DNA of 64,000 nucleotides from Longimicrobiales bacterium (GCA_965202985.1 CBDBCF010000002.1:512001-576000), one strand, 5' to 3'; positions 48,289 to 64,000 are shown, counted from the stretch's first letter. The notes: a model not told the origin generated them from the letters alone. Numbers and translations are program-made.

Positions 48289-51200
48289 ATGACAGGTCTC
48301 GCTCTCCCGCCTCGGCTCGCCGCGCTCCTCCGACGGTGCGCCGCGCTCGCCGGACTGACGGCTGCGACGTTCGCCGCCCCCGCTTCCGCCCAGAACGCCA
48401 CCGTCGTGGGCACCGTTTCCAACGCCGCCACCGGCGAGCCGCTGCCGTCCGCGCAGGTGTACGTGCCGGCGCTGGAGATCGGCGTCATCTCCCGAGAGGG
48501 CGGGCGCTTCGTCCTCCCCGGGGTCCCGCCGGGCACGCACGAGCTGCAGGTGGACCTGATCGGCTACGTGAGCGTGGTGCGGACGATCACGCTGGCCGCC
48601 GGCGAGACCGCGACCGTGGACCTGCAGATGCACTCCACGGCCTTGCAGCTGGTGGAGATCGTCGTGACCGGCACCGCGTTCGAGGAGTCGCCCGTGACGC
48701 TGCCGTACTCGGTGTCGGTGGCCGGGCGCCGCACGTTGGCCGAGCAGGGAGCGCCCCAAGCCACGGACTTCTTCAAGAACCTGGGGGCCAGCCACGGGAC
48801 GCTGGGCGAGCGGCAGGGCTGGTACAACACCAAGCAGGCCGGCTCGATGCCCGAGACGGTCGCGAACGTGAACCTGCGTGGGCTGGGCTCTTCTCGCACG
48901 CTGGTGCTCCTCAACGGCCGGCGCCAGACGTACATCCCGGTGCGCCAGTACGGCGGGCGGTTCGTGGACGTGAACGCCTTCCCGTCGGTGGCGATCGACC
49001 GGATCGAGGTGCTCAAGGAGGGCGCGTCCGCCGTCTACGGCTCGGACGCCGTGGCCGGGGTCGCGAACTTCCTGACCCGGAACGACTTCGAGGGCTTCGA
49101 GGTGGAGGCCGCGCACGAGTACTTCGCCGCTTCCGGCAACACCAACGTGGGCGCGATCTGGGGCAGCCCCGTCGGCGAAAGCTCCCACGCCGTCGTGTCG
49201 GCCGAGGCGCTGATCAGCCAAGCGCTGCACGTGCGGGACAGGGACTGGGCGCTTCGGGACTTCATCGCCGGCGCCGGTTCCTGGTCGTACACCGGCAACC
49301 CCGGCGCGTTCATCATTCCGCAGCTGACCGGCGAGGAGTCGAGCGAGGAGTTCTCGGCGGCCCTTGTGGACGCGCACTTCGGCGGCCTCGGCGGCGTCTT
49401 CGTGGACCCGGCGTGCCAGTCGTTCGGCGGCCACCTCGAGAACGAGACCTGCCGCTTCCGCTACCAGCCCTGGGACGACTTGCAGCAGGCGACTCGCCAC
49501 GTGCGGGCGTTCGGCGAACTCAACGGCGACTGGGGCGACGAGGGGACCTATCACGTGGAAGGGCTCTTCGCCGTCGCAACCCAGCCCGAGTGGCTGACCA
49601 CGCCTTCCTATCCGCCGATCTACCAGTACACCGACGCTTGGGCGATCGCCTCCGACCACCCCGGCCGCGTGGACTTCTGCGGCAAGAACAGTGCGCACGC
49701 GGGCTTCTCCTCGCAGTCCGAGTGCCTGGAGAACGACTGGTACTTCTACGGCCGCCTCGTGGGGAACAGCGGCCCCGGCCGCATCTTGTCCCGGCAGTCG
49801 GCCACCCAGCGCCTGGCCGCGTCTATGGAGCGCGTGGTGGGCGAGATGGGCGGCGGAGACCTGACGCTGGACGTGGGCGCAAGCTTCTCGCGCGCCTCCG
49901 GCAACGTGAACATCCCGTCCGAGTACGCCTACCGGAAGTTCCTGGCGTTCCGCGGGTTCGGCGGTCCCAACTGCGGCGTGGACGTCGTGCGCGACCCCAC
50001 CACGCCCTCGGGGATGGCGTTGGGACCCCTCAACGGACAGACCGCCGGGCAGGGCGGCTGCATGTACTACAACCCCTTCAGCAGCGCACTGCAGAACTCG
50101 GAGCAACCCGGCGCAGCCTACGAGAACCAAGCCAACCCGGGCTATATGGCGTCGCTGGCCAACTCGCCCGAGCTGCTGGACTGGATCAACGACGAGGTGG
50201 ACTTGGAGGGCGCCGCCAACCTGCTGGTCGGCGACGTGATGATGAAGGGAACGCTGGCCGAGGACCGGGCGAACTTCGCCGCCGGCTACCAGTTCCGCCG
50301 CTTCGCCGTGACCGGCACGCCCAACACCGCGGGGAACCTGGACGTGAACCCCTGTCCGGTGCTGGGCGACCAGAGCTGCGTGGACAAGGCCGGCTCGTTC
50401 ACCTTCACCAACGGCTTCTACCCCTACGACGCCTCGCAGACGGTTCACCGCTTCTTCGTCGAGGTGCCGATGACGTTCGGCGAGCGGTTCAGCGCCCAGG
50501 CCGCCGCCAACTACGAGTTCCACAGCAGCGCCAGCAGCTTCGACCCCCGGCTGGCCATGCGCCTTCAGGTGGCCGACCCGCTGGCGCTGCGCGTGTCCGT
50601 CCAGACCACCTTCCGCACGCCGTCGGTGGACGACGTGCACCCCCAGCAGAACACGGCCTCGGCGTACGTGTCCCAGGTCGGCACCTACAAGGCCACGGAC
50701 ACCTACGGCAACCCGGACTTGAAGCCGGAGCAGGCGTTCACCTACAACGCCGGGCTCAGCCTTCAACTGTCGCGCATGAGGGCGTCGGTGGACTACTGGA
50801 GCTACGACTTCAGCGACATGATCGAGATCCTTCCCTACGACGGCATCGCCCGCGCGTACGATTCGCCTTCGCGCAGTGTCGTCCAGCACCTGATCACCTG
50901 TCCCGGCAACCGCCGCGACGGCTCCTGCGAGGCCCGCAACATCGAGCGGATCCGGCTCGACATGGCCAACTGGCCGGGCGTCACGACATCGGGCATCGAC
51001 TGGCACGCCAGCACCCGGTTGCCCGCCGGCGAGGGCGTCGTGTCCCTGGGCATGGACGGCACCTACACGCGGAGCTACGACGTGAAGGCGCTGTCCGTGT
51101 CGAGCCCCGACTCTCCCGGCTCGTCGGTCGAGCTGCTGTCCGCCCAGTCGGCCGTGGGCAAGCTCAACTGGGGCAGCCCCGTGGCACCCCCCCTGCCCCG

Positions 51201-51510: not shown

Positions 51511-51599
51511 GGGTTGATCGAGGCGGCGTGGCTTTCTGCGGTGCAAACCCAGCGGCAAACCGCGGAGGCCGGCTTCGTCCTTGACGCGAGGAAACGAGG

Positions 51600-53129
51600 A
51601 TGCCGACTTACGATGTGACCGACATCTACGGCAACTGGTCGGCGATCAAGGCACTGGTGGATGGCGGGCAGCTCCAGACCCCGCTGTTGCGGGAGCTTTA
51701 CGCCGAACTTCAGCGCCGAAGTCCCGACTTCAAAGGCTTCGCGGGCGACATGTTCCGCGAGATGACCGGCTACCCGTCAGACGAAAAGCTCGGCCGCCTT
51801 TCGCTGTACAACTCGTTCAACAAGCTCGTGCCAAAGCTGTCAGTCGACAAGAAGCTAGTGCGGGTGGCGCACCGATCGAATGCTAACGTATACCAGGTAA
51901 GCGCGGTAGACGCACGCCGCCCAGAGGAGCAGGCGTCGGTACACGAGGTCGCACGGAACACGAAGTCGAACCCATGGCCCAACGACATGACGAAGTCGAT
52001 TCCCCGACAGCCTCCAAGCCCGATCGACGACTCGGCGTCTCAAACCTCGCCAAAGTCTTTCGGAGATTCCGAAGACGTAGAGGGTATCGACGAGCCAAAG
52101 TCTCCTTGGAGCGGATACCCATTGGACGAACTTCTGATTCGGCCGCAAAACCGCACTGTTTACGAAGTCGTCCGGAGAATCAAGAACAAGCAGTATGTCA
52201 TGGATCCGGATTTTCAGCGCGATTTCATTTGGACAAAGGCCCAACAGAGCAAGTTGATCGAGTCTGTGATCCTGCGAATCCCCTTGCCGGTCTTCTACCT
52301 CGCCGAGGACGAGCAGGGCCGAATGGTCGTCGTCGATGGTCTCCAAAGGTTATCCACGTTCTACAGCTTTCTTGAGGACGACCTGGTGTTGCGCAGCCTG
52401 CACCGTACCGACCTCAATCGCAAACGGTTTTCGGATCTCCCGCCCAAATTGCAGAATCGGGTTGAAGACTGTGATTTGATCTTCTATACCATTGATTCCA
52501 AAGTGCCGATGCAGGCCAAATTGGACATCTTCGATCGGGTCAATGCTGGTGTGCCATTGTCCCGGCAACAGATGCGGAACTGCTTGTTGATGGGAAACGG
52601 AACAAAGTTCTTGAAGCTCGAATCCCGCTCCGAATTGTTCCAGAAGGCGACCGGCAGAAGCTTGAAGTCCGACATGATGCGGGATAGAGAGTTTGTAAAT
52701 CGATATTGCGCATTTCGTCTGGAGAGCTTGGACGATTATCGCGGCGACATGGACGATTTTCTGGTCCTTGCCCTAAAGCGTATGAACAAGATGGACGATC
52801 ACCAGCTAGCGAGCCTGTCGAAAGGGTTTCGCAACGGTCTGGAGAACAACTTCGTTGTATTTGGTCGACATGCTTTCCGTCGCCACACCCAGTCACAGCA
52901 ACATCGCAACGTTCTGAACGCATCGCTGTGGGATGTTATGTCCACTGGATTGTCGTTCTATTCCAAGGGTCAGGTCGTCGAGCAGAAACAATACCTCAAG
53001 GATGCATTCTACAACCTTTTGGACGACGAAGACTTCGATGCATCTATCACCAAGGGAACCAACAGCACGAAGCGTGTGAAATATCGATTCAGGGCAACCC
53101 GTAGAATGCTGACGAAGGTCCTGGGATGA
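51600..53129 (+). CDS. DUF262 (ParB/Srx-like) protein, Menshen NsnA-like, with extra N-terminal domain
   Basis: PDFQRDFIW, LIESVILRIPLPVFY, VVDGLQRL, IFDRVNAG..LS.Q. Visibly lower GC than the backbone. Confidence 0.85.
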   Translation: MPTYDVTDIYGNWSAIKALVDGGQLQTPLLRELYAELQRRSPDFKGFAGDMFREMTGYPSDEKLGRLSLYNSFNKLVPKLSVDKKLVRVAHRSNANVYQVSAVDARRPEEQASVHEVARNTKSNPWPNDMTKSIPRQPPSPIDDSASQTSPKSFGDSEDVEGIDEPKSPWSGYPLDELLIRPQNRTVYEVVRRIKNKQYVMDPDFQRDFIWTKAQQSKLIESVILRIPLPVFYLAEDEQGRMVVVDGLQRLSTFYSFLEDDLVLRSLHRTDLNRKRFSDLPPKLQNRVEDCDLIFYTIDSKVPMQAKLDIFDRVNAGVPLSRQQMRNCLLMGNGTKFLKLESRSELFQKATGRSLKSDMMRDREFVNRYCAFRLESLDDYRGDMDDFLVLALKRMNKMDDHQLASLSKGFRNGLENNFVVFGRHAFRRHTQSQQHRNVLNASLWDVMSTGLSFYSKGQVVEQKQYLKDAFYNLLDDEDFDASITKGTNSTKRVKYRFRATRRMLTKVLG

Positions 53130-54268
53130 TCGCTCGAATCGATCTCTATCGCTTCAAGTGCTTCTCCGTCTTGAAGTTGCCTCTTTCACCGCTTACTTTA
53201 TTGTCGGGTACGAATGCATCCGGAAAATCGTCCGTATTGCAAGCACTAGCATTGCTTCATCAGACGATTCGCGAACACCAATGGTCTACGAGACTGATGC
53301 TCAACGGTCTCGCGGTTCGGCTGGGAACCGTCGCCGACGTCATTGATCAGATCGAGGGCCGGACGTCGTTCGACATTGCGCTTTGGGACGACGACGAGGA
53401 GTACCGATGGAACTTTGGAGGACATCGCACCCAGATGTCAATGGAAATCACCAGGATATCAGCAGGCGGAAAAACATATGAAGAGCCTCGACCGCTGCTC
53501 CGATTGCTACCAGAAGAGATTGGTGGTCAGTCGTTGGCCACGCGACTTCGAGATTTGAGTTACTTGACGGCAGAGAGACTTGGACCAAGGGACTACTATC
53601 CGTTGGAGGACCCACAATCGACGCCGGTTGTCGGCCCGGCCGGGGAACACACGGTGAGTGTCTTGCAGTCGGGAGAGGAAGTTCCCGTACTCGACGCCTT
53701 GGCCCTAGAGGGAACGCCGCCGACACGGTTGCGACAGGTCGAGGCACGCATGGAGAAGTTCTTCCCGAGTTGCCAGTTGGCAATCGACACGATTCCGCAC
53801 GCGAACGCGGTGCGACTCGGCATTCGCACCTCGAGCGACACCGGATTTCATCGCCCCGGTCACACCGGGTTTGGGCTGACCCAAGTCTTGCCTGTTGTGG
53901 TGGCCGCCTTGTCGTCCAAGAGCAACGGTCTGCTGTTGATCGAAAACCCGGAGGTGCATCTTCACCCGGCTGGCCAAGCGAGTATGGGACGGTTTCTGGC
54001 AGAGGTGAGTGCCGCGGGCGTTCAGGTCATTCTCGAAACCCACAGCGACCACGTCCTCAATGGCGTCCGTCGGGCGGTCAAGGACGGCAAGGTACGTCCG
54101 CAAGATGTAGCCCTGCACTTCTTCCGGTCGCGAACGGGAGGGAAGGAGACACGGCTTCCACAGGTCGAGAGTCCGAGCCTTGACGCCGACGGCAACGTTG
54201 ACGTGTGGCCCGAGGGCTTTTTCGACCAGTTCGACAAGGACATGAACTACTTCGCGGGGTGGGCGTGA
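53126..54268 (+). CDS. ABC/AAA_21 ATPase with DUF3696 tail, Menshen NsnB-like
   Basis: FKCF, GTNASGKS, AERLGPR, TGFGLTQVLP, IENPEVHLHP, ETHSDH, WPEGFFDQ. ATGA overlap with the upstream gene. Confidence 0.88.
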   Translation: MIARIDLYRFKCFSVLKLPLSPLTLLSGTNASGKSSVLQALALLHQTIREHQWSTRLMLNGLAVRLGTVADVIDQIEGRTSFDIALWDDDEEYRWNFGGHRTQMSMEITRISAGGKTYEEPRPLLRLLPEEIGGQSLATRLRDLSYLTAERLGPRDYYPLEDPQSTPVVGPAGEHTVSVLQSGEEVPVLDALALEGTPPTRLRQVEARMEKFFPSCQLAIDTIPHANAVRLGIRTSSDTGFHRPGHTGFGLTQVLPVVVAALSSKSNGLLLIENPEVHLHPAGQASMGRFLAEVSAAGVQVILETHSDHVLNGVRRAVKDGKVRPQDVALHFFRSRTGGKETRLPQVESPSLDADGNVDVWPEGFFDQFDKDMNYFAGWA

Positions 54269-54269
54269 G

Positions 54270-55226
54270 GTGGACCTTTTTGCCAACGACCGGTCAATTC
54301 ATCACCAGTTTCAGGACTTGTCTTTGTTTCGCGAGGCAATATTGCGACTTGCTGACATGCGTAGAGTTGCGAGGCGCTGGGGTCAAGAAGTCTACTGCAG
54401 TCGCGAGATGGCCCAGGTCGAGCCGGTGCGGGACGTTCCCATGCCGAAAGCGATTCAACGGCTGTCGCATCCGGAGAAGAACGCTGTGATGTCGTGGTTG
54501 ACCCGAGCGGGGCCGTTCTGGGACGACTTCGATCGCCACGGAAGAGACGAGTGGCTGGAATGCGACAGCGACGTTGTGACCGACTCCGCTGTTGCCGAGG
54601 CGGCCTTTCGCAGCATTCACGGCTTTCCATCCGGGCTGATCAGCGCTGATCCTTCGGCGTGGACCCGGTCTCCCGTTCGGGTGACGTGGCGCGTCAATGA
54701 CGACACGGTCCGCCAGGCGGTGGACATCGAGAACTGGTGGGACCAGACCGCGCTACTCGCGGCACTCGAGAATGCCGCCCCTCATCCGACCTCTTGGGAC
54801 GAACTTTATAGGGTTGCGACACGCAGGTTTAGCAGGCTCTTTTTTTGCAAGGACTGCTTCGACCCGCTCAAGGGCCTTCCGTTTGCGAGCGGAGCGGCGG
54901 GTCACCTTGGGGTCCTTCTAGGAATCCTCGACCGCTTCGCGGGCTGCTTTGACGAGGGCGGGCGTCGTACGTCCGAAGGTCATCGACTGGTGGAACAGTA
55001 CTTCACCGGGGACAGCGCGCTGTTTTCGGATTCGTCGGATTCGGAGAAGCGGCAGTTTCGACGTCAACTTACGTTTCGCGATGAATCTTTGCCCGGCGGA
55101 AGAACGATCTGCGGCTGGCACGGCAAGATGAAGCGCCACACGATCCGGTTTCACTTTTCGTGGCCGGTGCGGGCGAACGAACGGATCAGCGTCGTCTACG
55201 TGGGACCAAAGCTCACCAAGTCCTAG
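54270..55226 (+). CDS. Hypothetical protein, probable Menshen NsnC-like effector
   Basis: Third gene of a tight operon (1-bp gap). C-terminal WHGK..RFHF..VVYVGPKL resembles RelE/ParE-fold ends (inference). Confidence 0.65.
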   Translation: MDLFANDRSIHHQFQDLSLFREAILRLADMRRVARRWGQEVYCSREMAQVEPVRDVPMPKAIQRLSHPEKNAVMSWLTRAGPFWDDFDRHGRDEWLECDSDVVTDSAVAEAAFRSIHGFPSGLISADPSAWTRSPVRVTWRVNDDTVRQAVDIENWWDQTALLAALENAAPHPTSWDELYRVATRRFSRLFFCKDCFDPLKGLPFASGAAGHLGVLLGILDRFAGCFDEGGRRTSEGHRLVEQYFTGDSALFSDSSDSEKRQFRRQLTFRDESLPGGRTICGWHGKMKRHTIRFHFSWPVRANERISVVYVGPKLTKS

Positions 55227-55297
55227 CGCAGTGTTGGAGAACAAGCTAGCGTACCGTAGTGGAAACCAGTGTCGTGCCCGGAAGCAAGGAGTAGAGA

Positions 55298-56128
55298 ATG
55301 CGACATCGAGACAGAACTGACATCTACGGCAACACTGTTGGACACCAGCCGAGTTCCGTTCCTCGAGTGCGGGATCTCTACTGGCCCACATTGTTGGCGC
55401 TTAGATCGTTCGGTGGTCTGCCAGCGACGAAGTCCGAGGTCATGGCTTGGGTGGCCGACCACTTGCGACTTCCGGGCTCCGTGGTTCGGCTTCTTCACCG
55501 AGAGGACGGCAGCAGCCCCGAGACGGAACTTGGCTACCGCATCACGTGGGCGCTGAGCGGACTCAAGAAGATCGACACCGCCCACAATCCGGTCCGGGCC
55601 CATTGGGTGGTCACCGATTTTGGCAGGAATATCAGAGACGAGCAGCAACTCCAAGAACTGAACGACGCCTTCCGGCGGCAACATCGGGTCCACCGGAGAG
55701 CCCCGGCGAGCAGGAACACGCGGGACTGGGTTCTGGCGTCAATGCGGATGCTCGTCGCTGCTGGCGTCGCTGAGCCGTCGCTGGACCAGATCGAGTACGC
55801 TGCCAAGGCCGTCGGCTGGAATGGCGCCAGCAGATCCCTCCGGAACGCGACGTGGAATGCGAAGCGTGAGGGACTTCTCATCGCCGCGGGGCATGGGCGC
55901 TACAGACTGGCGGAGACGGCACCCCGCGGGAACTTGCCAGCGCAGCAGCCCGCCGCGGGGTCGGTCAACAAACCCGGGAATGTGCCAGCCGAGGTGCCCG
56001 CGGACGATCCGGTCCCCGAACCGGCGGCAGTGGGCAACCCCGATGATGCGCTGGTGCAGTGCGTGAAGAGGCTGTCAGACGTCGTGGAGGAACTGAGGGA
56101 CGCGGTTGACGGCTTGGCCGGGAGATAG
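55298..56128 (+). CDS. Mrr N-terminal-like winged-helix protein lacking a nuclease domain
   Basis: LYWPTLLAL, YRITWALSGLKK, RAHWVVTDFGR fit Mrr_N. Second HTH-like region ends GLLIAAGHGRYRL. AAGGAG RBS. Confidence 0.7.
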   Translation: MRHRDRTDIYGNTVGHQPSSVPRVRDLYWPTLLALRSFGGLPATKSEVMAWVADHLRLPGSVVRLLHREDGSSPETELGYRITWALSGLKKIDTAHNPVRAHWVVTDFGRNIRDEQQLQELNDAFRRQHRVHRRAPASRNTRDWVLASMRMLVAAGVAEPSLDQIEYAAKAVGWNGASRSLRNATWNAKREGLLIAAGHGRYRLAETAPRGNLPAQQPAAGSVNKPGNVPAEVPADDPVPEPAAVGNPDDALVQCVKRLSDVVEELRDAVDGLAGR

Positions 56129-56144
56129 CTGGCCGGCGTTACGC

Positions 56145-57011
56145 TCACACGAACTCCACGCCCTCCATCTCGCCGAACCGTTGCACCATGATCTCCACGG
56201 CCTCCGGGTTGTTGTCGACGAGGACGAAGCGGCGGTCTAGCTCGTGGGCGGCTGCCCCGAGGGTTCCGCTGCCCGCAAAGGGATCGAGAACGAGGTCGCC
56301 GGGGCGCGACGACGCCTGCACGATGCGCCGGACCACGCCCAAGGGCTTCTGCGTCGGGTAGCCGGTGCGCTCCTTGCCGCTGGTCGGGACGATGGTGTGC
56401 CACCACGTGTCGGTGGGCAGCTTGCCGCGGGCGGCTTTTTCGGGTCCCACGAGTCCGGGCACCATGTAGGGGATGCGCTCCACGGCCTCCGAGTCGAAGA
56501 AGTAGCGGTCGGGGTCCTTGGCGTAGAAGAGGATGTTGTCGTGCTTGGCGGGCCACCGGCGCTTGGGGCGGCCGCCGAAGTCGTAGGCCCAGATGATCTC
56601 GTTGACGAAGCACTCGCGGCCGAAGATGTCGTCGAGCAGGACCTTGGCGTAGTGAACCTCGCGGTAGTCCAGGTGCAGGTAGAGGGAACCGGTGGGCGCC
56701 AGCAGGCGGTGGGCTTCGCGCATCCGGGGAGCCAGGAAGGCGCCGTAGTCGTCGAAGGCGTCGTCGAAGGCGCGGGTCTTGCCCTGCTCGGTTCGATAGC
56801 GCTGGCCCTGGAAGCCGGTGCGGTCACCGGCGGGATCGCGGACGGTGCGGAGGCGCGTTCGGGCTTGGGCGCGGCCGGTGTTGAAGGGCGGGTCCGCGTA
56901 GACGAGGTCCACAGAGCCGGAGGGCATCCGGCGCAGGACGGGAAGGCTGTCGCCGAAGTGCACTCGGCCTCGGACGGCGGCTTGACCGGCTCGCTGGGGC
57001 TTGGGGCTCAA
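56145..57011 (-). CDS. Orphan beta-class N6A/N4C DNA methyltransferase
   Basis: DLVYADPPFNTG precedes YPTQKP and LDPFAGSGT. TTG start overlaps the kynureninase stop. Confidence 0.9.
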   Translation of the reverse strand: MSPKPQRAGQAAVRGRVHFGDSLPVLRRMPSGSVDLVYADPPFNTGRAQARTRLRTVRDPAGDRTGFQGQRYRTEQGKTRAFDDAFDDYGAFLAPRMREAHRLLAPTGSLYLHLDYREVHYAKVLLDDIFGRECFVNEIIWAYDFGGRPKRRWPAKHDNILFYAKDPDRYFFDSEAVERIPYMVPGLVGPEKAARGKLPTDTWWHTIVPTSGKERTGYPTQKPLGVVRRIVQASSRPGDLVLDPFAGSGTLGAAAHELDRRFVLVDNNPEAVEIMVQRFGEMEGVEFV

Positions 57012-58213
57012 CGGGGCGCGAGCTGGGATGCGACTTCGCCCAGTGCGGCGGCCGCGTCGTCCAGCTGGGCGTCGGTCACGTAGGGGGCCGGCCCCAGACG
57101 GAGCAGGCTGCCCCGATGGTCCACGTAGACGCCCCGCTCGCGCAGAAGGCGGACGAAGTCGGCGGCGAACGGGGTCTCCAGCACGAGAAAGCCGCCCTTG
57201 CGATCCAGGGGGACGGCACGGTCGCGGGAGAGCACGGCGGGGTCCAGGTCTAGGGCGTCTACGGCGGTGGCCAAGCGGCGAATCTGGGCCAAGTTGGATG
57301 CGCGAAGGCGGTCGGCGGTCAGGCCGTGCTCCGCGAAGAACTGGAAGACGGCGGCGGCGCGGTAGTGGCTGACGGGGTCGTAGGTCGCGCCCGCGAAGCG
57401 CACGTGGCCGGTGCCGTAGCGGACCGGAGGGCTGGGCCGGGCCAAGCCGCCCTCGGACTCTGGCGCAGGCGCTTGGGCCAGCGTGCCGAACTCGGCGAAC
57501 CAGCCCGTGAGGACCGGGCGCAGGGCGCACTCGGCGGGAAACCGCAAGAAGCAGTTCCCTTCCCCGAGCTGACAGTACTTGTAGCCGCCGCCCACCACGA
57601 ACGCGCTGCCCAGCCCCGTCTCGCGCACCGAGAACGGTACTGCCGCCAAGGAGTGGTAGGCGTCCACGAGGAGCTCGGCGCCGACCTGCGCGCAGGCATC
57701 CGCCACGCGGCCCAGCCCATCGACGATCGTCGCGTCCCGGAAGAGGACCGACGACACGAGAACCGCGGCCGTTCGCTCGTCCACGGCGCTCCCCAGCCGG
57801 TCGGCCACGCCCGCGTCCCCGCTGCTCAACGTCGCGACTTCGACGCCTTCCTCGCGCAACCGGCCCAGCTGGCGGCGGATCGTGCGAAACTCCCCGTCGG
57901 TGGTGACCAGACGCGGACGCTCGCGCAGGGGCAGCGCGGACAGGAAGCGGACCACGAGCTCGTGCGTGTTCTGGCCGAGGGCGATGTGGCCGTCCGGGTC
58001 GTCCAGAAGCCGCCGGAAGCCGGCCCGCACCTTGTCGGCCATCGCGAAGGCGCGGTCCCACTTGTCGTCCACCAGCTCGGCCGCGTCCAGCCACGCCTGC
58101 TGCTGGGCGTCGAAGCCCACGTCGGGCCATGCTTGGTGCGAGTGGCCCGTAAGCAGGACCCGCTCCCCGACTCGGAATCGGGCGTAGCGGCGGGCCAGGT
58201 CCTCAGGCCGCAC
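57008..58213 (-). CDS. kynU: Kynureninase-like class V PLP enzyme
   Basis: LLTGHSHQAWPD, DKW, TDGEF, DAYH, GGGYKYCQLGEG, GWF, LRLGPAPY. Confidence 0.8.
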   Translation of the reverse strand: MRPEDLARRYARFRVGERVLLTGHSHQAWPDVGFDAQQQAWLDAAELVDDKWDRAFAMADKVRAGFRRLLDDPDGHIALGQNTHELVVRFLSALPLRERPRLVTTDGEFRTIRRQLGRLREEGVEVATLSSGDAGVADRLGSAVDERTAAVLVSSVLFRDATIVDGLGRVADACAQVGAELLVDAYHSLAAVPFSVRETGLGSAFVVGGGYKYCQLGEGNCFLRFPAECALRPVLTGWFAEFGTLAQAPAPESEGGLARPSPPVRYGTGHVRFAGATYDPVSHYRAAAVFQFFAEHGLTADRLRASNLAQIRRLATAVDALDLDPAVLSRDRAVPLDRKGGFLVLETPFAADFVRLLRERGVYVDHRGSLLRLGPAPYVTDAQLDDAAAALGEVASQLAPR

Positions 58214-61200
58214 CGGCGGCGGCCCGTTGGCCGAGGATGATCGAGATGTAGTCGTATTCGTCCGTGCGCTCCGGAAAGACGATGTGGGCCTGCGCAAATC
58301 GCTCGCGCGTCCACGTGCCGTCGTCGTACGACCGGCGCAGATCCTCGTAGGGCGTGTTCGAAACAATGTAGGAATCCAGGGAGACGTTCTTCGTCCGGGA
58401 CCGGGCGGCGGCGTTGCGCGCCAACGCGGGCAGGCGCTCGTGCAGGCGGGCCTTGTCGTCGTGCCGATACGCCCGCGCGTGGACCATGCCGTGGGGCTCC
58501 ACGAACACCACCCGCTGGGCCGGCCCTTCCTTGATCCACAGGATGAAGTCCGGGTAGAAGCCGCGCGTGTCGAAGAAGCCGATTCCCCTGCCCTGCGTCA
58601 GGTTTCGCAACAGGAAGAGCTCCCTGCCCCTGCCGAAGTCGTCCACATGCGCTCGACACCGGGCACGCAGGTCTTCGACGAACTGCGCTTCGCCGGCGTT
58701 GAGCCCCGGAGGCGTGGTCTGGATGCGGGCGTCCCGATCGACCAGCAGCGGCTGATACAGATGCCGGTCGAAGTAGATGCCGGGCAGGTCCGCCGTGGCC
58801 GTTCGATAGATGCGATCGCCTTCCGCGATCAGCTCCCGTATCGCTTCCACCAGCGCCGTCTCGCCGCGGGGCACACGAACCGCGTAGCGGGGGAAGTTCG
58901 CGTCCCGCTCGCTCACCTTGTCGTACACGACCTGCTCGGTGTCCCACCGCTCGCGACGAACGCGGCAGAACTTGTCCACGTACTTCTTCAGAACCGTCAG
59001 CACGACATCTTCGAGAAGCTGCATGTCCTCGACGCTCGTTGGGACCGAAACGTGTTCGTCTGCGATCAGGTCGTAGAGCCCGCGTCCTTCCTCCGATTCG
59101 ACGATCCTCCTTGTCGCTTGGGAGTCGAGAGCAAGGTTCGCCAGCCCCTGGCCGTCCGCATACTCGACCAGCTCCAGGTGGACCTTCTGCCAGTCGACCA
59201 GGGCAAGGCTCGTTGCCGGGATCGACTGGGACTGCCCCGACCGGGCGTCGCGGTCCCTAATGCCGTCTTCGTCGGCGTCCAACGTACGCACGCGCACGGA
59301 CTTGTCCACGCGCACCCGGATCGCATCGTCGCGCTCGAGAAACACGTCCTCCTCGTCCACAAAGGAGCGTTCGTCGGGCATCCGGGGAACGAGCAGGCCC
59401 CGGTCCAGGAACGCGCGGTTGGGCTTCGCGTCCAGGCGAAGCTCCACCACGTCCCGCGTGTCCACGCCCTCCTGCTCCAAGTAGTTGCGGAACTGGAACA
59501 TGTAGTCGGCGCGGACGGCGAAGATGTCCAGCGTTTCCAGGAGCTTCACGTCGGGCGGGTGCTCGCCGTCCAGAGCGGAGCTCCGCTTGAGACCGAAGCC
59601 CTTGCCGCGCAGACGGACCCCGCGTCCGAAGAGCTGGATGATCTGCGACCCCTCCGTGCGACCGATGTTCATCAGCCCCATGTTCGCGACCCGCCAGGAG
59701 TTCCAGCCCTCCATGAACTTTCTGGCGCCGACCAGGACGTTGACGCCGCCCTCGGGGTCGGCGATGCCCTCGAAGAGCGAGTCGCCGACGACGTCGTGCT
59801 CGAAGACGAAGCCGGGGTCGTCCTGCCGGGCAAGCTTGACGAACGCTCCGACGTCGCCGATGTAGATCACGCCGAAGCAGCGGTCGGCCGTGCTCGCCCG
59901 AAGGCCGATCTCTCCCCGGCTGCCGCGCATCGACCCCAGGTGAAGGCCGCCCGAGGCCGATGCGTGAAACACTCGCGCCAATACGTCTCGATACAGGGCC
60001 TCTGCCGACAGACCGTCCTCGCGTAGGGACGCGAACCTGTCCGCGAACACGTCCCGTCCGTCGGCTCTTCGCAATCCGCTGTCGCCTTCCAGAAGCCTGG
60101 ACGCCGTCTCGACCGCCCAGCCGTCTGGGTTCGCGAGCACGCGGTGGAAGAAGCGAGCCACCGTCAGCACGTCGCTTCTCTTCTGCTTTCGCAGGGAGTA
60201 GACGGCGTTGACGGTGCCCCCGACGAACACCCACAGCGGATGCTCGAGGTTGTAGGGTCGAATCGCGGGCTCGTGCTCGTCGAAGGCCCGCATCTGCTCG
60301 TAGAACGACAGCAGGTTGCCGAGGAGCAGCGTGTCGGTCGCGTCCTGCTCCCGTTCCTCTTGCAGGTTCAGGATGCGGAAGTCCTTGCCGTATCCGTCGC
60401 TGTGGAAGTACCGATACGAGTAGTCGAAGCCGATCGACTTGCCGTACTCCGCCGTCAGCTTCTGGTTTCGCGCCGACGCCAAGGCTTGGCCGAAGGTGGC
60501 GCTGTACTCGAAGGTGAAGCCGCCCTTCCCGACCGCTTCGCGCGCCCTTCGCCACGCCTCGCCGCCCGTGCCTCGGTGCCCTTCGTCGACAAAGACCAGG
60601 TTGGCGCCCTCGAACGCCTCCACGGGGACGCTGGCGCCGCCGCCCCGCTTCTTCTCGACGAGCTTGGTGATCTCGACCACCTGCACCGTGTCCCTGTCGA
60701 GCGCCAGCAGGCCGCTGTCGTCGAGGTCGAAGCGCCGGCACGGGATCCCCGACGCGCGCATCTCGGCGATGTGCTGGCGGGTCAGGCCCTCGTTCGGCGT
60801 GACGAGCACGATGTTGTCGAGCGGCCGAGCGTTGTAGTGCAGGAACTGGCGGTAGTTGACGTGCATGATCAGCGTCTTGCCGCTGCCCGTCGCCATCCAG
60901 TAGGCGAGTCGGCGAAGGTCCGACGTTTGCATCGTCGGAAATCGGTCGTCGTACGTCTTGTACTGGTTGCGCTTGTAGGCCGCCTCGTTCAGCGACTCGA
61001 CCAGATCCGCGGGACGCCGAAGGGCCCAGTCCAAGTAGAGCTCCGTGTACAACGCCGCCGCGTGCTGAAAGTAGCGGAACACGATCGGGCGGCCACGGCC
61101 CGCGTTCACGGCTCGCAGGTGGGCCCGAATGTTCTGGTCGTAGCGGACCAAGTCCTCCAAGGGCGCCTTCGCGCGCCGTCCCCGCGACTCCAGACGTCTG

Positions 61201-61355
61201 TGGACGTAGCTCCTTCCGGTGTCGTCGTAGCCTTCCGCGCACTCCTTCAAATCGGCTAGCATTTCTTGGTTCGTCTTGTAGCCGAACTGCTCGTGAAGCC
61301 ACGCGAGAAGAACCAGCCGCCGATCCAGCTTGGTCTTCGAGGTCCGCTTCGTCAC
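58203..61355 (-). CDS. res: Type III restriction enzyme Res subunit (SF2 helicase + PD-(D/E)xK nuclease)
   Basis: MATGSGKT, VFVDEGH, EYSATF, KFMEGWN, QLFGRGVR, FYPDFILW..FVEPHG. Confidence 0.9.
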   Translation of the reverse strand: MTKRTSKTKLDRRLVLLAWLHEQFGYKTNQEMLADLKECAEGYDDTGRSYVHRRLESRGRRAKAPLEDLVRYDQNIRAHLRAVNAGRGRPIVFRYFQHAAALYTELYLDWALRRPADLVESLNEAAYKRNQYKTYDDRFPTMQTSDLRRLAYWMATGSGKTLIMHVNYRQFLHYNARPLDNIVLVTPNEGLTRQHIAEMRASGIPCRRFDLDDSGLLALDRDTVQVVEITKLVEKKRGGGASVPVEAFEGANLVFVDEGHRGTGGEAWRRAREAVGKGGFTFEYSATFGQALASARNQKLTAEYGKSIGFDYSYRYFHSDGYGKDFRILNLQEEREQDATDTLLLGNLLSFYEQMRAFDEHEPAIRPYNLEHPLWVFVGGTVNAVYSLRKQKRSDVLTVARFFHRVLANPDGWAVETASRLLEGDSGLRRADGRDVFADRFASLREDGLSAEALYRDVLARVFHASASGGLHLGSMRGSRGEIGLRASTADRCFGVIYIGDVGAFVKLARQDDPGFVFEHDVVGDSLFEGIADPEGGVNVLVGARKFMEGWNSWRVANMGLMNIGRTEGSQIIQLFGRGVRLRGKGFGLKRSSALDGEHPPDVKLLETLDIFAVRADYMFQFRNYLEQEGVDTRDVVELRLDAKPNRAFLDRGLLVPRMPDERSFVDEEDVFLERDDAIRVRVDKSVRVRTLDADEDGIRDRDARSGQSQSIPATSLALVDWQKVHLELVEYADGQGLANLALDSQATRRIVESEEGRGLYDLIADEHVSVPTSVEDMQLLEDVVLTVLKKYVDKFCRVRRERWDTEQVVYDKVSERDANFPRYAVRVPRGETALVEAIRELIAEGDRIYRTATADLPGIYFDRHLYQPLLVDRDARIQTTPPGLNAGEAQFVEDLRARCRAHVDDFGRGRELFLLRNLTQGRGIGFFDTRGFYPDFILWIKEGPAQRVVFVEPHGMVHARAYRHDDKARLHERLPALARNAAARSRTKNVSLDSYIVSNTPYEDLRRSYDDGTWTRERFAQAHIVFPERTDEYDYISIILGQRAAAGAA

Positions 61356-64000
61356 GACGCGCCCCCCGACCGGAACATGCGCCTCTTGAAGAGCGGGTCC
61401 AGCGCCGTCGCTTCGCGGATGAGAGAGCTCCCGTTCACAAACACTTGGTCGGCCCCGTTGACGAATCCCTGGGCTGCCACGAACTCCTTGTCCCGGACGA
61501 AATCCGCCCTGCCCCAACCCTCCGTGTCCCGCCAGATCACGACAATCCGCCGCCTATTGACGGTTCCGGTTTGCACAAGGTACCGCCGTCCGTCGTCGTG
61601 GTGGACGCGGCGCGTCGCCACGCGAAGGCCCAGCAGGTAGGCGAACGTCTCCGGGAGGTCCGCGACGACCTCGCGCACTTGGCCGTTCGCCCCCGCGCGA
61701 AGCATGTACGAGAACGGCTTGTCCAGATCGAACACGTTCAAGAGCGTCGCGCTGTCCTTCGTCTCCCACCGGAGCATGTACCTGAGGACGTAGCCATCGA
61801 GCTCCAGCGCGCGCTGGCCCGCCTCGCCGTCGAAGCTGATGTTGCTCAGCGCGTCCTCGTAGCTCTCGATCCGCACGTACTTGACGACCTGCGGCCCCCT
61901 TTCCGCTTCCTCGGGCGTCGCCGCGCGCTTCGGCTTGCCGTCCTTCCACTCGGGCGCGAAGACGACCTTCTTCAGCCGAGGCAGCAGCATCTGGTCGAAG
62001 TACTCCCCCATCTCGACCAGAACGAACCGCCGGGCGCCCCCGTCGCGGCGGTTGAGGTCGACGACCGCGTGAGCCGTGGTGCCGGATCCGGCGAAGTAGT
62101 CCAGCACCGTTCCGTCGTGACGGGCCAGCAGCACGGCGCACCGGTCCACGAGCTGCGTCGGCTTGGGCTTGATCTCGTCGATCAGCCCCCTCATCTCGCC
62201 GTTTCCGAAGAGGTTCAGCAAGAGCTTGGTGGCGTCGGTCGTCGTCTTCACGTCGTCCCACAATGTCGTAGGCACCATGCCCTTGGCGCGCGCGTGCCGA
62301 AGGTAGCGCTTGCACATCGGCTTGGCCTCGCCCGACCGCCCGAACACAATCTGGCCGGCAGCGAGCAGCCGCTTCGTCTTGGCCGCGTCGAACCGCCAGT
62401 GGCGGCCCTCCGGCGGCCAGTGCTCCTCGCCCGTCTCGGGGTTGACGATCGGGTAAAGCAGGTTCTCTCGGACGTTGGGCGCGTCCATGGGGTCCAGGAC
62501 CCAAGGCCCCTGGGGATCGTCGTCCGGGTTGGAGAACTTCAAGTCGACGTGCGGCAGTCTGAACTCCGTCTTCTTGGACTCCAGGAACGTCCTGTCGGCC
62601 GCGAAGAAGGTCGTGTGGTTGGTGGAGATCGAGATCAGCGCGTCGTTGGACACCGACTTGCGACTGTTCCAGATGACGTCGGCCACGAAGTTCTCCCGGC
62701 CCCACGTCTGCTCTAGAACCCCTCGCAACACGGCGTATTCCCCGTCGTCGGTGCTGACGAAGATGCCCGCGCGCTGGGAAGCCAGCCTCCGCGAGGCGGC
62801 CAAGCGGTCGTTCATCATCGACAGCCACGAACTGTGTCGATAGTTGTCCTTGTAGACGAACTTCTCGTTCTGGCCGGTGTTGTAGGGCGGGTCGATGTAG
62901 ATGCAGTCCACTTCGTCTCTGTGCCGCTCCTCCAACAGGCCGAGCGCCTGCCAGTTCTCGCCGTGCACCAACGTGCCTGCGGTCATGCCGTCCAGGTCCT
63001 CCCACGACCCGAGAAGCCGGTCGACGAACGACTGCGAGAAGTGCCGCGTGTCGAGAACGAGCGTCGGATGCCGCCGGAGGAAGGCCAGCCGCGCGTCCGC
63101 TTTGTCCTCTTCGTCCACGAACAGCAGCTCGCGCCACTCGTTCCACTGTTCTTCGCACTCGGCGATCTCCGGGTGGAACGCCTCGCCTATGCACCTCAGG
63201 GTGACGCAGTACTGGGTCTCCGTTACGAACTTGCGCTTCTCCCACAGCATCTTCTGAAAGGACTCGATCTGGTCCAAGAAGTCGATGATCCTGTGGCCCA
63301 CGGTTCCGATCACGCGCACCGTCTGAAACCAGCCTTCCGATCTTTCCTCGCCGGCCGTCAGGACGTTCGCTACGTTCATGACTTCGTTCTTGAGGTAGAA
63401 GTCGAGCTCGTTCGTCAAGAACCTTTTCAGGTCCTTGTGAACGAAGTAGTCCGACGTGTTGCGCCTCGTGTACTGCCGAAGGTGATGCTCGAGAATCGTG
63501 ACCACTTCCCCGCTGGCCCTGGTCCGGCGCTCCGCGGTCAGGGCGGCGTGCGCGCGCGCAGCGTTGCTCGTCTTCGTCAGGTGTTCCGGTATCGCGACGA
63601 GCGCGCGAGCAATGATCTCTTCCTGCGCGCCGTTGACGCCCTTCTTGCCGTTGCCGAGGCTCTCGTCCTTCGTCAGCGGACGGTATTCGAACGGAATCGC
63701 AAGGTGGGAGGCTTGGTCGTCCCATGCGATCTGGTCGATCCGAGGCACGAAGAAGCGCCGGTCGCCCTTGATGTTGTCCTGTTCGACGTCGGCGGCCGCC
63801 AGGCGGAAGGCGACGCTGACGCCCTTGGCGTTGAATGCGTAGTCGCGGAATACCTCTGTCGTCTTGACGTAGTACTGATCCTTGTTGGACCAGTGCAGAA
63901 GAACCTCTTCGCCGTTGTACGGGACCGCGTAGCGCTGGCGCATCGAGTACCGGCGCTGGGACATGAAGTCGCCGCGGTCGTAGTACCGGCCGAAAAAGGT
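61352..64000 (-). CDS. mod: Type III RM Mod subunit (DNA methyltransferase), 5' end outside the window
   Basis: CIYIDPPYNTG, SSWLSMM..RL, PKP, LDYFAGSGTT, LVEMG, IESYEDAL. GTGA overlap with res; frame open to the window edge. Confidence 0.92.
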   Translation of the reverse strand, partial: TFFGRYYDRGDFMSQRRYSMRQRYAVPYNGEEVLLHWSNKDQYYVKTTEVFRDYAFNAKGVSVAFRLAAADVEQDNIKGDRRFFVPRIDQIAWDDQASHLAIPFEYRPLTKDESLGNGKKGVNGAQEEIIARALVAIPEHLTKTSNAARAHAALTAERRTRASGEVVTILEHHLRQYTRRNTSDYFVHKDLKRFLTNELDFYLKNEVMNVANVLTAGEERSEGWFQTVRVIGTVGHRIIDFLDQIESFQKMLWEKRKFVTETQYCVTLRCIGEAFHPEIAECEEQWNEWRELLFVDEEDKADARLAFLRRHPTLVLDTRHFSQSFVDRLLGSWEDLDGMTAGTLVHGENWQALGLLEERHRDEVDCIYIDPPYNTGQNEKFVYKDNYRHSSWLSMMNDRLAASRRLASQRAGIFVSTDDGEYAVLRGVLEQTWGRENFVADVIWNSRKSVSNDALISISTNHTTFFAADRTFLESKKTEFRLPHVDLKFSNPDDDPQGPWVLDPMDAPNVRENLLYPIVNPETGEEHWPPEGRHWRFDAAKTKRLLAAGQIVFGRSGEAKPMCKRYLRHARAKGMVPTTLWDDVKTTTDATKLLLNLFGNGEMRGLIDEIKPKPTQLVDRCAVLLARHDGTVLDYFAGSGTTAHAVVDLNRRDGGARRFVLVEMGEYFDQMLLPRLKKVVFAPEWKDGKPKRAATPEEAERGPQVVKYVRIESYEDALSNISFDGEAGQRALELDGYVLRYMLRWETKDSATLLNVFDLDKPFSYMLRAGANGQVREVVADLPETFAYLLGLRVATRRVHHDDGRRYLVQTGTVNRRRIVVIWRDTEGWGRADFVRDKEFVAAQGFVNGADQVFVNGSSLIREATALDPLFKRRMFRSGGAS

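Follow-up and report, generated by a model that had tools for sequence, protein, structure and literature searches.

A Type II Menshen operon with a rare predicted winged-helix head on NsnA, followed by a gene carrying the likely stump of a second head

Why should the first protein of an anti-phage operon and the protein encoded just behind that operon begin with the same peptide? The question is raised by a stretch of 64,000 nucleotides (nt) from a Longimicrobiales bacterium (GCA_965202985.1 CBDBCF010000002.1:512001-576000; hereafter the window, with positions counted from its first letter), in which a Menshen-type operon, nsnABC, is followed by a fourth gene. NsnA starts MPTYDV-TDIYGN and the product of gene 4 starts MRHRDR-TDIYGN. 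A first-pass annotation had taken this likeness either for a sign of homologous, working winged helix-turn-helix (wHTH) modules on both proteins, and of a possible four-component defence variant, or for the mark of the recombination event that inserted the cassette. Our analysis leads to another answer: the locus is probably a Type II Menshen operon whose NsnA bears a rare, predicted winged-helix DNA-sensor domain (the head), and the 12-residue match in gene 4 is the likely stump of a second head copy lost by in-frame deletion, rather than a working module common to both proteins.

The shared N-terminal motif is real and non-random. The 15-mer GACATCTACGGCAAC is present in two copies, at 51621-51635 and 55319-55333, and TDIYGN forms residues 7-12 of both open reading frames (ORFs; 51600-53129 and 55298-56128), just as had been annotated. 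In six frames of the whole 3.86-megabase (Mb) genome, the 15-mer and the hexapeptide each occur only at these two places, while T[DE][IL]Y[GR][ND], a relaxed form of the head-family motif, has three occurrences. The repeat extends to 17/18 nt once one flanking codon is added. Contigs of runs from four studies span both gene starts and the junction from nsnC to the head remnant of gene 4 without differences, which excludes misassembly. A single repeated 15-mer is unremarkable in this GC-rich window, since its 44 repeated 15-mers make up 24 separate exact pairs. All five codons of the 15-mer are major synonymous codons and, given the same peptide, the probability of identical codons is ~0.03 with the codon usage of the island and 0.27 with that of the host; the nucleotide identity thus largely follows from conservation of the peptide, and the signal lies at the protein level. 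A one-mismatch copy of the 15-mer at 50698-50712, inside a TonB-dependent receptor gene, codes for TDTYGN (in ...ATDTYGNPDLKPE...); as the receptors of congeners keep TDTYGN too, its likeness to the head motif is apparently due to chance.

Genes 1-3 are a Menshen nsnABC operon, as the succession of a DUF262 gene, a DUF3696 ATPase gene and a third gene had suggested. Their products (509, 380 and 318 amino acids (aa), against 276 aa for gene 4) match the PADLOC profiles NsnA, NsnB and NsnC (Table 1), and Pfam GmrSD_N covers NsnA residues 191-330 (4.6e-23). The NsnA motifs FQRDFIW, DGLQR and FDRVN, read from the translation, correspond to the QRxxxW, DGxQR and FxxxN motifs that define Menshen NsnA in the survey of Li et al. 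(Nucleic Acids Res 2025, PMC12065111; cited here from part of its text). NsnC, which in Menshen pairs an inPIN-like N-terminus with an effector C-terminus, matches no Pfam family, and NCBIfam holds no family for NsnA, gene 4 or relatives of either. The operon is translationally coupled: the start of nsnB overlaps the stop of nsnA (ATGA, 53126-53129) and nsnC begins one base past the stop of nsnB (54268/54270). Shine-Dalgarno-like purine-rich sequences precede the ATGs of both nsnA and gene 4; a scan not tuned to this phylum revealed no promoter-like sites. The GC content of the operon is 0.49-0.61 and that of its flanks 0.67-0.73, in line with the lower value noted at first sight.

The PADLOC NsnA profile matches residues 159-508 only, so that residues 1-158, comprising the head and a linker, are extra. 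An AlphaFold2 (AF2) model of the head (125 residues), built from 8 sequences, has a mean predicted local distance difference test score (pLDDT) of 80.8, with values of ~90 across residues 11-100 and of at least 84 in each 10-residue block of that range; in this model the head is a separate, confidently predicted domain. Secondary structure assigned by DSSP on the model comprises helices at residues 26-40, 48-56 and 68-82, a strand at 45-46 and a hairpin at 86-92/95-100, preceded by two short helices that take in TDIYGN-W. The predicted order helix-strand-helix-helix-hairpin is that of the winged-helix fold. In a VIA-align scan of 48,161 solved chains, nearly all matches were winged-helix domains (Z 5.3-6.8, a range in which, according to the tool, a match may reflect a common arrangement, as it may anywhere below Z 8), among them cullin WHB, Fur, MarR, Z-alpha/Z-beta and RPA2 WH. 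Foldseek returned weak matches, mostly to winged-helix proteins (best E 0.025). Based on this modelling, we predict the head of NsnA to be a winged helix, which agrees with the wHTH-type module that the first-pass annotation had proposed for this N-terminus. Sequence searches gave the head no name: no Pfam family was hit by NsnA residues 1-160 at a threshold as loose as E<=10, Mrr_N (PF14338) was negative both in that search and by profile comparison (0.14%), the ESM Atlas held unnamed clusters only (0.94-0.95), and a Protein Data Bank sequence search with the profile of either the head or the gene-4 family gave nothing below E 0.36.

The head is also rare. An exhaustive HMMER search of 1,835,955,588 representatives detected 4 proteins at E<=0.001 and a word-based search detected 5; among other genomes, the head was found in none of 400 from the phylum and in 1 of 313 from the family. 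Neither Joint Genome Institute (JGI) metagenome contigs nor viral contigs gave a head match, nor did genome contigs queried with a single protein. Queried with the alignment, genome contigs yielded contig L003, from the congener G441, and a false positive, L004, which we rejected as a head bearer: its VTDIYGDW belongs to the interior of an unrelated ORF from Sphingobium (622 aa), the start of which resembles a flavin-binding oxidoreductase. Eight heads nevertheless align across ~105 residues with 22 invariant positions, and in this family the TDIYGN-type start does recur.

A single head family fronts three kinds of protein. It is found on the DUF262 partner, NsnA, in P0005, P0007 and P0008; on an Mrr_cat nuclease in P0006, P0010 and the G441 gene at L003:10010-10807 (Pfam 2e-22); and, in P0002 (405 aa), a full-length gene-4 homologue, on Mrr_N followed by the C-terminus of gene 4. 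The head-Mrr_cat proteins match Pfam Mrr_cat at 2e-22 to 6e-17 as well as PADLOC PDC-S02 and mREase_IV. Relatedness among heads cuts across partner type, since the heads of P0005 (NsnA) and P0006 (Mrr_cat) are 86% identical (93% in the half with recognition helix and wing) while NsnA-borne heads are mutually only 52-77% identical. The NsnA bodies of these head bearers are 84-91% identical to that of the window.

These features place the operon within a known architecture. Type II Menshen is defined as NsnA with an added N-terminal sensor domain (PMC12065111), and here a globular domain does stand N-terminal to the ParB-DUF262 body, with the same nsnA-nsnB-nsnC order and families, and is conserved in three further NsnA proteins. 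The winged helix is the commonest published class of extra NsnA domains, with the wHTH sensor families named PS-wHTH1-8 (PMC12065111). Recruitment is likewise clade-specific: the nearest NsnA proteins of head-less length (335-394 aa) have bodies 71-78% identical to that of the window. The operon also adjoins methyltransferase and Type III-like restriction-modification (R-M) genes, neighbours that were reported at 27.9% of Menshen loci (PMC12065111). An extra N-terminal wHTH on NsnA has been described before, as Type II Menshen (PMC12065111). The window departs from the published system in that its head is not Mrr_N by either Pfam or profile comparison, and in that neither a head held in common with an Mrr_cat nuclease at the same slot nor a stump on the next gene is described in the part of PMC12065111 used here. 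No further paper on the domain architecture of Menshen turned up in our literature search.

What, then, does gene 4 retain of the head? It carries an Mrr_N winged helix, as first annotated (residues 27-112, 2e-08, 34.7 bits against a gathering cut-off of 29.5; 37-50 bits in its homologues). BLASTP of the NsnA N-terminus against gene 4 aligned the 12-residue start only (8/12, E 0.033). Compared with P0002, gene 4 matches at residues 1-12, skips to the very end of the head (TVGHQ, where P0002 has SIVHQ) and is colinear from there on, with TVGHQ joined directly to the segment ahead of Mrr_N as SIVHQ is in P0002. Gene 4 thus keeps head residues 1-12 and the last ~3-5, the ~98 residues between being absent in frame, and its positions 1, 2, 4, 5 and 7-12 are within head-family variation. 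Judging by these alignments, its N-terminus is likely the in-frame deletion stump of a second head copy, and so little of the head is left that homologous working wHTH modules on both proteins must be given up. Nor is the supposed likeness of the segments that follow, TPLLRELY in NsnA and VPRVRDLY in gene 4, one of homology, because BLASTP aligned only the 12 residues, a profile-profile comparison of the head and gene-4 families with hhalign gave a probability of 0.14%, and P0002 holds both segments in separate places of one protein, ~90 residues apart.

In-frame deletions do occur in gene 4. A natural allele from another sample lacks 73 codons (219 nt) and encodes a protein of 203 aa (P0001); the deletion edges read GTC GGC / GTG GGC, and much of the conserved C-terminal region is removed together with a Pro-rich linker. 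This C-terminal region is non-catalytic as far as can be recognised: residues 142-276 (the C-terminal 135) match neither Mrr_cat nor any other Pfam family at E<=10, the homologues match no PADLOC family, the ESM Atlas offered no usable lead for the gene-4 C-terminus (scores <=0.83), and JGI metagenomes held no match to the gene-4 family. An AF2 model of P0002 from 4 sequences was poor (mean pLDDT 47) and was excluded from the fold search.

The surroundings of both genes were compared among four congeneric genomes. The locus is a variable defence slot between two convergent core genes, coding for the TonB-dependent receptor and a pyridoxal phosphate (PLP)-dependent enzyme, and is in a different state in each genome. 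In the window its 5,511 nt hold head-nsnABC, stump-gene 4 and a methyltransferase gene; in G441 it holds head-Mrr_cat and the methyltransferase; in G442 it holds a lone gene-4 homologue of 288 aa (44% identical, Mrr_N 4e-13) with no head; and in G440 it is reduced to 53 nt with a hairpin (L014:1050-1102), which provides the empty site lacking the cassette that the first-pass annotation had suggested looking for in related genomes. Variable slots between conserved core genes that house different cassettes in related strains are known as defence hotspots. The present slot resembles them in that its four states, an empty one included, lie between the same pair of genes, and differs in that exchange seems to rely on homology within the 5' half of the head, itself a coding module, and within the methyltransferase gene. 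Against G441, nucleotide similarity is 79% over 51612-51776 (the first half of the head), is then lost, and is back at the methyltransferase (87% identity). Synonymous divergence (dS) between these heads rises from 0.30 in their first half to 1.4 in their second, a pattern consistent, like the end of similarity mid-head, with a crossover within the head. The slot showed no integrase, no tRNA and no direct repeat on its flanks.

Three side observations concern this slot. The island of the window starts right after a common GGTTGAT that follows the receptor stop codon. The GC-rich hairpin of the empty G440 slot, standing between two convergent core genes, is probably a bidirectional terminator. 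Between window 51600-51914 and L003:10010-10330, the first half of the head (58 codons) has a ratio of nonsynonymous to synonymous divergence (dN/dS) of ~1.0 and the second (43 codons) one of 0.38; small as these samples are, the head is evolving fast relative to the NsnA body.

Could gene 4 be a working partner of nsnABC after all, in a four-component Menshen whose M-x5-TDIYGN head serves as a common docking or sensing element? It lies on the same strand at a distance of 71 nt, with no terminator-like site in between in a scan not tuned to this phylum, it keeps the head peptide near the family consensus though the remaining domain is gone, and Mrr_N is itself among the published NsnA sensor domains (PMC12065111). 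However, nsnA, nsnB and nsnC overlap or abut whereas gene 4 follows its gap with an AAGGAG of its own, 6 nt ahead of the ATG; in G442, the corresponding slot is occupied by a gene-4 homologue alone, with no Menshen; full-length relatives occur in only 2 of 314 family genomes (17 further ones match the Mrr_N part only, within ORFs that range from 73 to 1,369 aa and mostly measure ~300 aa); the relatives P0003 and that of G442 are without the head; the natural deletion allele is short of 73 more codons; and TDIYGN-W is packed into the modelled domain (pLDDT 79-93), which would be unlike a free peptide. We consider such a partnership quite improbable, and the four-component variant proposed in the first-pass annotation finds little support given the 71-nt gap, the lone G442 homologue and the deletion allele. 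Sheer coincidence, by which unrelated N-termini would share a hexapeptide in preferred codons, could draw on the 24 exact 15-mer pairs of the window, on the five major codons and on the VTDIYGDW of the Sphingobium ORF. It is very improbable, as 3.86 Mb hold the hexapeptide no more than twice, in two genes 3.7 kb apart and in each at residues 7-12, as gene 4 fits head-family variation at the ten positions given above, and as its homologue P0002 carries a whole head at the same position.

A rather unlikely alternative is that Menshen body genes were inserted into a resident P0002-like head-Mrr_N gene and split it, the 15-mer being the recombination junction. P0002 would be the uninterrupted gene, the left edge of divergence from G441 does fall inside the head, and the GC content of the cassette is below that of both head and host. 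Yet the right junction joins head residue 12 to ~111 and is no homologous crossover, so that a deletion-type event would still be needed and the account takes two events instead of one. Moreover, the two heads agree at just 8/18 nt over their opening six codons and so are no target-site duplication, three other lineages have head-NsnA fusions joined at the same point, and a joint of 51635 to 55334 is not among the joints listed (15 of 31). The idea that the 15-mer marks recombination is therefore borne out insofar as the repeat is tied to a rearrangement, and falls short as an account of cassette insertion, for which two events would be required and no target-site duplication is seen.

Several points weigh against the reading that we prefer, of a sensor head on NsnA and a deletion stump on gene 4. 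The direction of change is unrooted: gene 4 of the window, P0002 and P0003 are 58-61% identical, which leaves their order unresolved, and P0002 could have gained its head. The gene-4 homologues P0003 and that of G442 have no clear head remnant. The agreement of the two heads is uneven, at 8/18 over the first 18 nt and 17/18 over the next 18, which simple descent does not explain; a codon-bias coincidence or a short conversion may be responsible. The winged-helix call depends on an 8-sequence model and on structural matches below Z 8, with no Foldseek match to the head at E<=0.001, and DNA binding by the head and any anti-phage activity are predicted. Since no terminator-like site follows nsnC, co-transcription of gene 4 with the operon is possible.

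The preferred reading implies the following history. The ancestor would have had two head-bearing genes in tandem, head-nsnABC and then a head-Mrr_N gene, and the ~98 codons of the second head would subsequently have been deleted in frame. Effectors behind the head may have been exchanged via recombination in its conserved 5' half. The head would bind DNA and, as a sequence- or modification-reading winged helix, add target recognition to NsnA. Following the published Menshen proposal, which is itself computational (PMC12065111), NsnA would sense phage DNA, NsnB would transduce the signal and NsnC would be the effector.

A wider proposal has, in our estimate, a modest chance of being right: the head could be an exchangeable targeting cassette, in which recombination in the conserved 5' half swaps the effector of the slot, while allelic heads, differing mainly in recognition helix and wing, retarget it. 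Such a specificity system would be shufflon-like, the effectors swapped behind the head being an Mrr-type nuclease, Menshen or a nuclease-less Mrr_N protein, and would have left behind, as debris, the stump of gene 4 and the tandem-head protein P0009. P0009 (280 aa) consists of a head, the first Mrr_cat residues (WRDNAM) and then directly a second head start in one frame; beyond the first half of this second head there is no more family resemblance. It is possibly a fused or frameshifted tandem pair, and it adds a further case of rearrangement at a head.

Two families of DNA-cleaving enzymes offer further comparison. Mrr-type Type IV restriction endonucleases combine Mrr_N with Mrr_cat, a PD-(D/E)xK domain. 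The G441 gene product at L003:10010-10807, P0006 and P0010 similarly join a winged-helix-like head to Mrr_cat, albeit with the head in the place of Mrr_N, while gene 4 carries Mrr_N but no Mrr_cat or other catalytic domain that we could find. The winged-helix recognition domains of the Type IIS enzymes FokI and BpuJI have been cited as models for the wHTH sensors at the NsnA N-terminus (PMC12065111). They share with the head-bearing proteins a DNA-recognition winged helix ahead of a separate catalytic or signalling body, and P0002 strings together two distinct domains of winged-helix type; our searches brought no sequence or structural match to these enzymes, whose entries are not among the best 50 VIA-align matches.

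The remaining genes of the region are listed in Table 1. The small methyltransferase gene is convergent with gene 4. Head and methyltransferase are both present at the slot in two of two genomes (that of the window, G000, and G441) and both absent in the two others (G440 and G442). A functional coupling of methyltransferase and head, which we considered, is not supported: G442, a genome without the head, has a 78% identical copy elsewhere, with no recognisable nuclease beside it. G441 has a second methyltransferase copy in two pieces ~2.4 kb apart (G441:C1:855386-855619 and 858076-858681, in L036), which are 79% and 71% identical to the enzyme of the window and may have been interrupted by an insertion. 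Beyond the PLP-dependent enzyme gene, which separates two variable defence segments, the Res and Mod genes are common to G441 at 92% nucleotide identity, above the 82-87% of the flanking core genes, and neither G440 nor G442 has them here.

Table 1. Features of the nsnABC-gene 4 locus and its neighbours (window positions).
Feature	Position	Strand	Basis or remark
Variable slot, from TonB-dependent receptor gene to PLP-enzyme gene	51519..57029	.	blastn vs L014, L013, L003; alignments
NsnA residues 1-105, extra head, predicted winged helix	51600..51914	+	AF2 model; homologous heads on three partner types
15-mer copy 1	51621..51635	+	codons 8-12 of nsnA (DIYGN)
NsnA residues 106-158, Pro/Ser/Asp-rich low-confidence linker between head and body	51915..52073	+	pLDDT <50 at residues 106-124
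NsnA body, ParB-type DUF262/GmrSD_N and C-terminal domain	52074..53129	+	PADLOC NsnA 4.2e-115, residues 159-508
NsnB, ABC-type ATPase with DUF3696 tail	53126..54268	+	PADLOC NsnB 2e-102; Pfam AAA_15, AAA_21, DUF3696 1.2e-15
NsnC, predicted effector	54270..55226	+	PADLOC NsnC PDLC03896 1.8e-104, full length
Gene 4: head stump, Mrr_N winged helix, conserved non-catalytic C-terminal region, terminal helix	55298..56128	+	
Gene 4 codons 1-12 (MRHRDRTDIYGN), likely remnant of head start, holding 15-mer copy 2	55298..55333	+	aligns to head residues 1-12
Gene 4 codons 13-17 (TVGHQ), likely remnant of head end (family tail V-H-E/Q)	55334..55348	+	alignments
219-nt (73-codon) gene 4 segment, absent in frame from natural allele	55814..56032	+	55813 abuts 56033 in contig record 14 of run X3
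Small N6/N4 DNA methyltransferase, convergent with gene 4, part of inserted island	56145..56981	-	Pfam N6_N4_Mtase 9e-44; PADLOC MTase_II 2.9e-140
PLP-dependent enzyme gene, core, in all four congeners	57008-58366	-	between methyltransferase and Res
Type III-like Res gene	58203-61517		
Large N6/N4 Mod gene	61352-64000		runs off window

The locus does not reveal a new type of system; it offers a snapshot of sensor-head shuffling in a known one. The Menshen survey had inferred an 'independent integration of sensor domains' from phylogeny (PMC12065111). Here a piece of that history can be read within one genus and one slot, in which a sensor domain would have moved among different anti-phage effectors, and its states stand side by side: an empty site, heads attached to a nuclease, to NsnA or to an Mrr_N protein, and a stump. 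With its very few members and their clear allelic differences in recognition helix and wing, the head family makes a convenient test of whether the N-terminal domains of NsnA set phage specificity.

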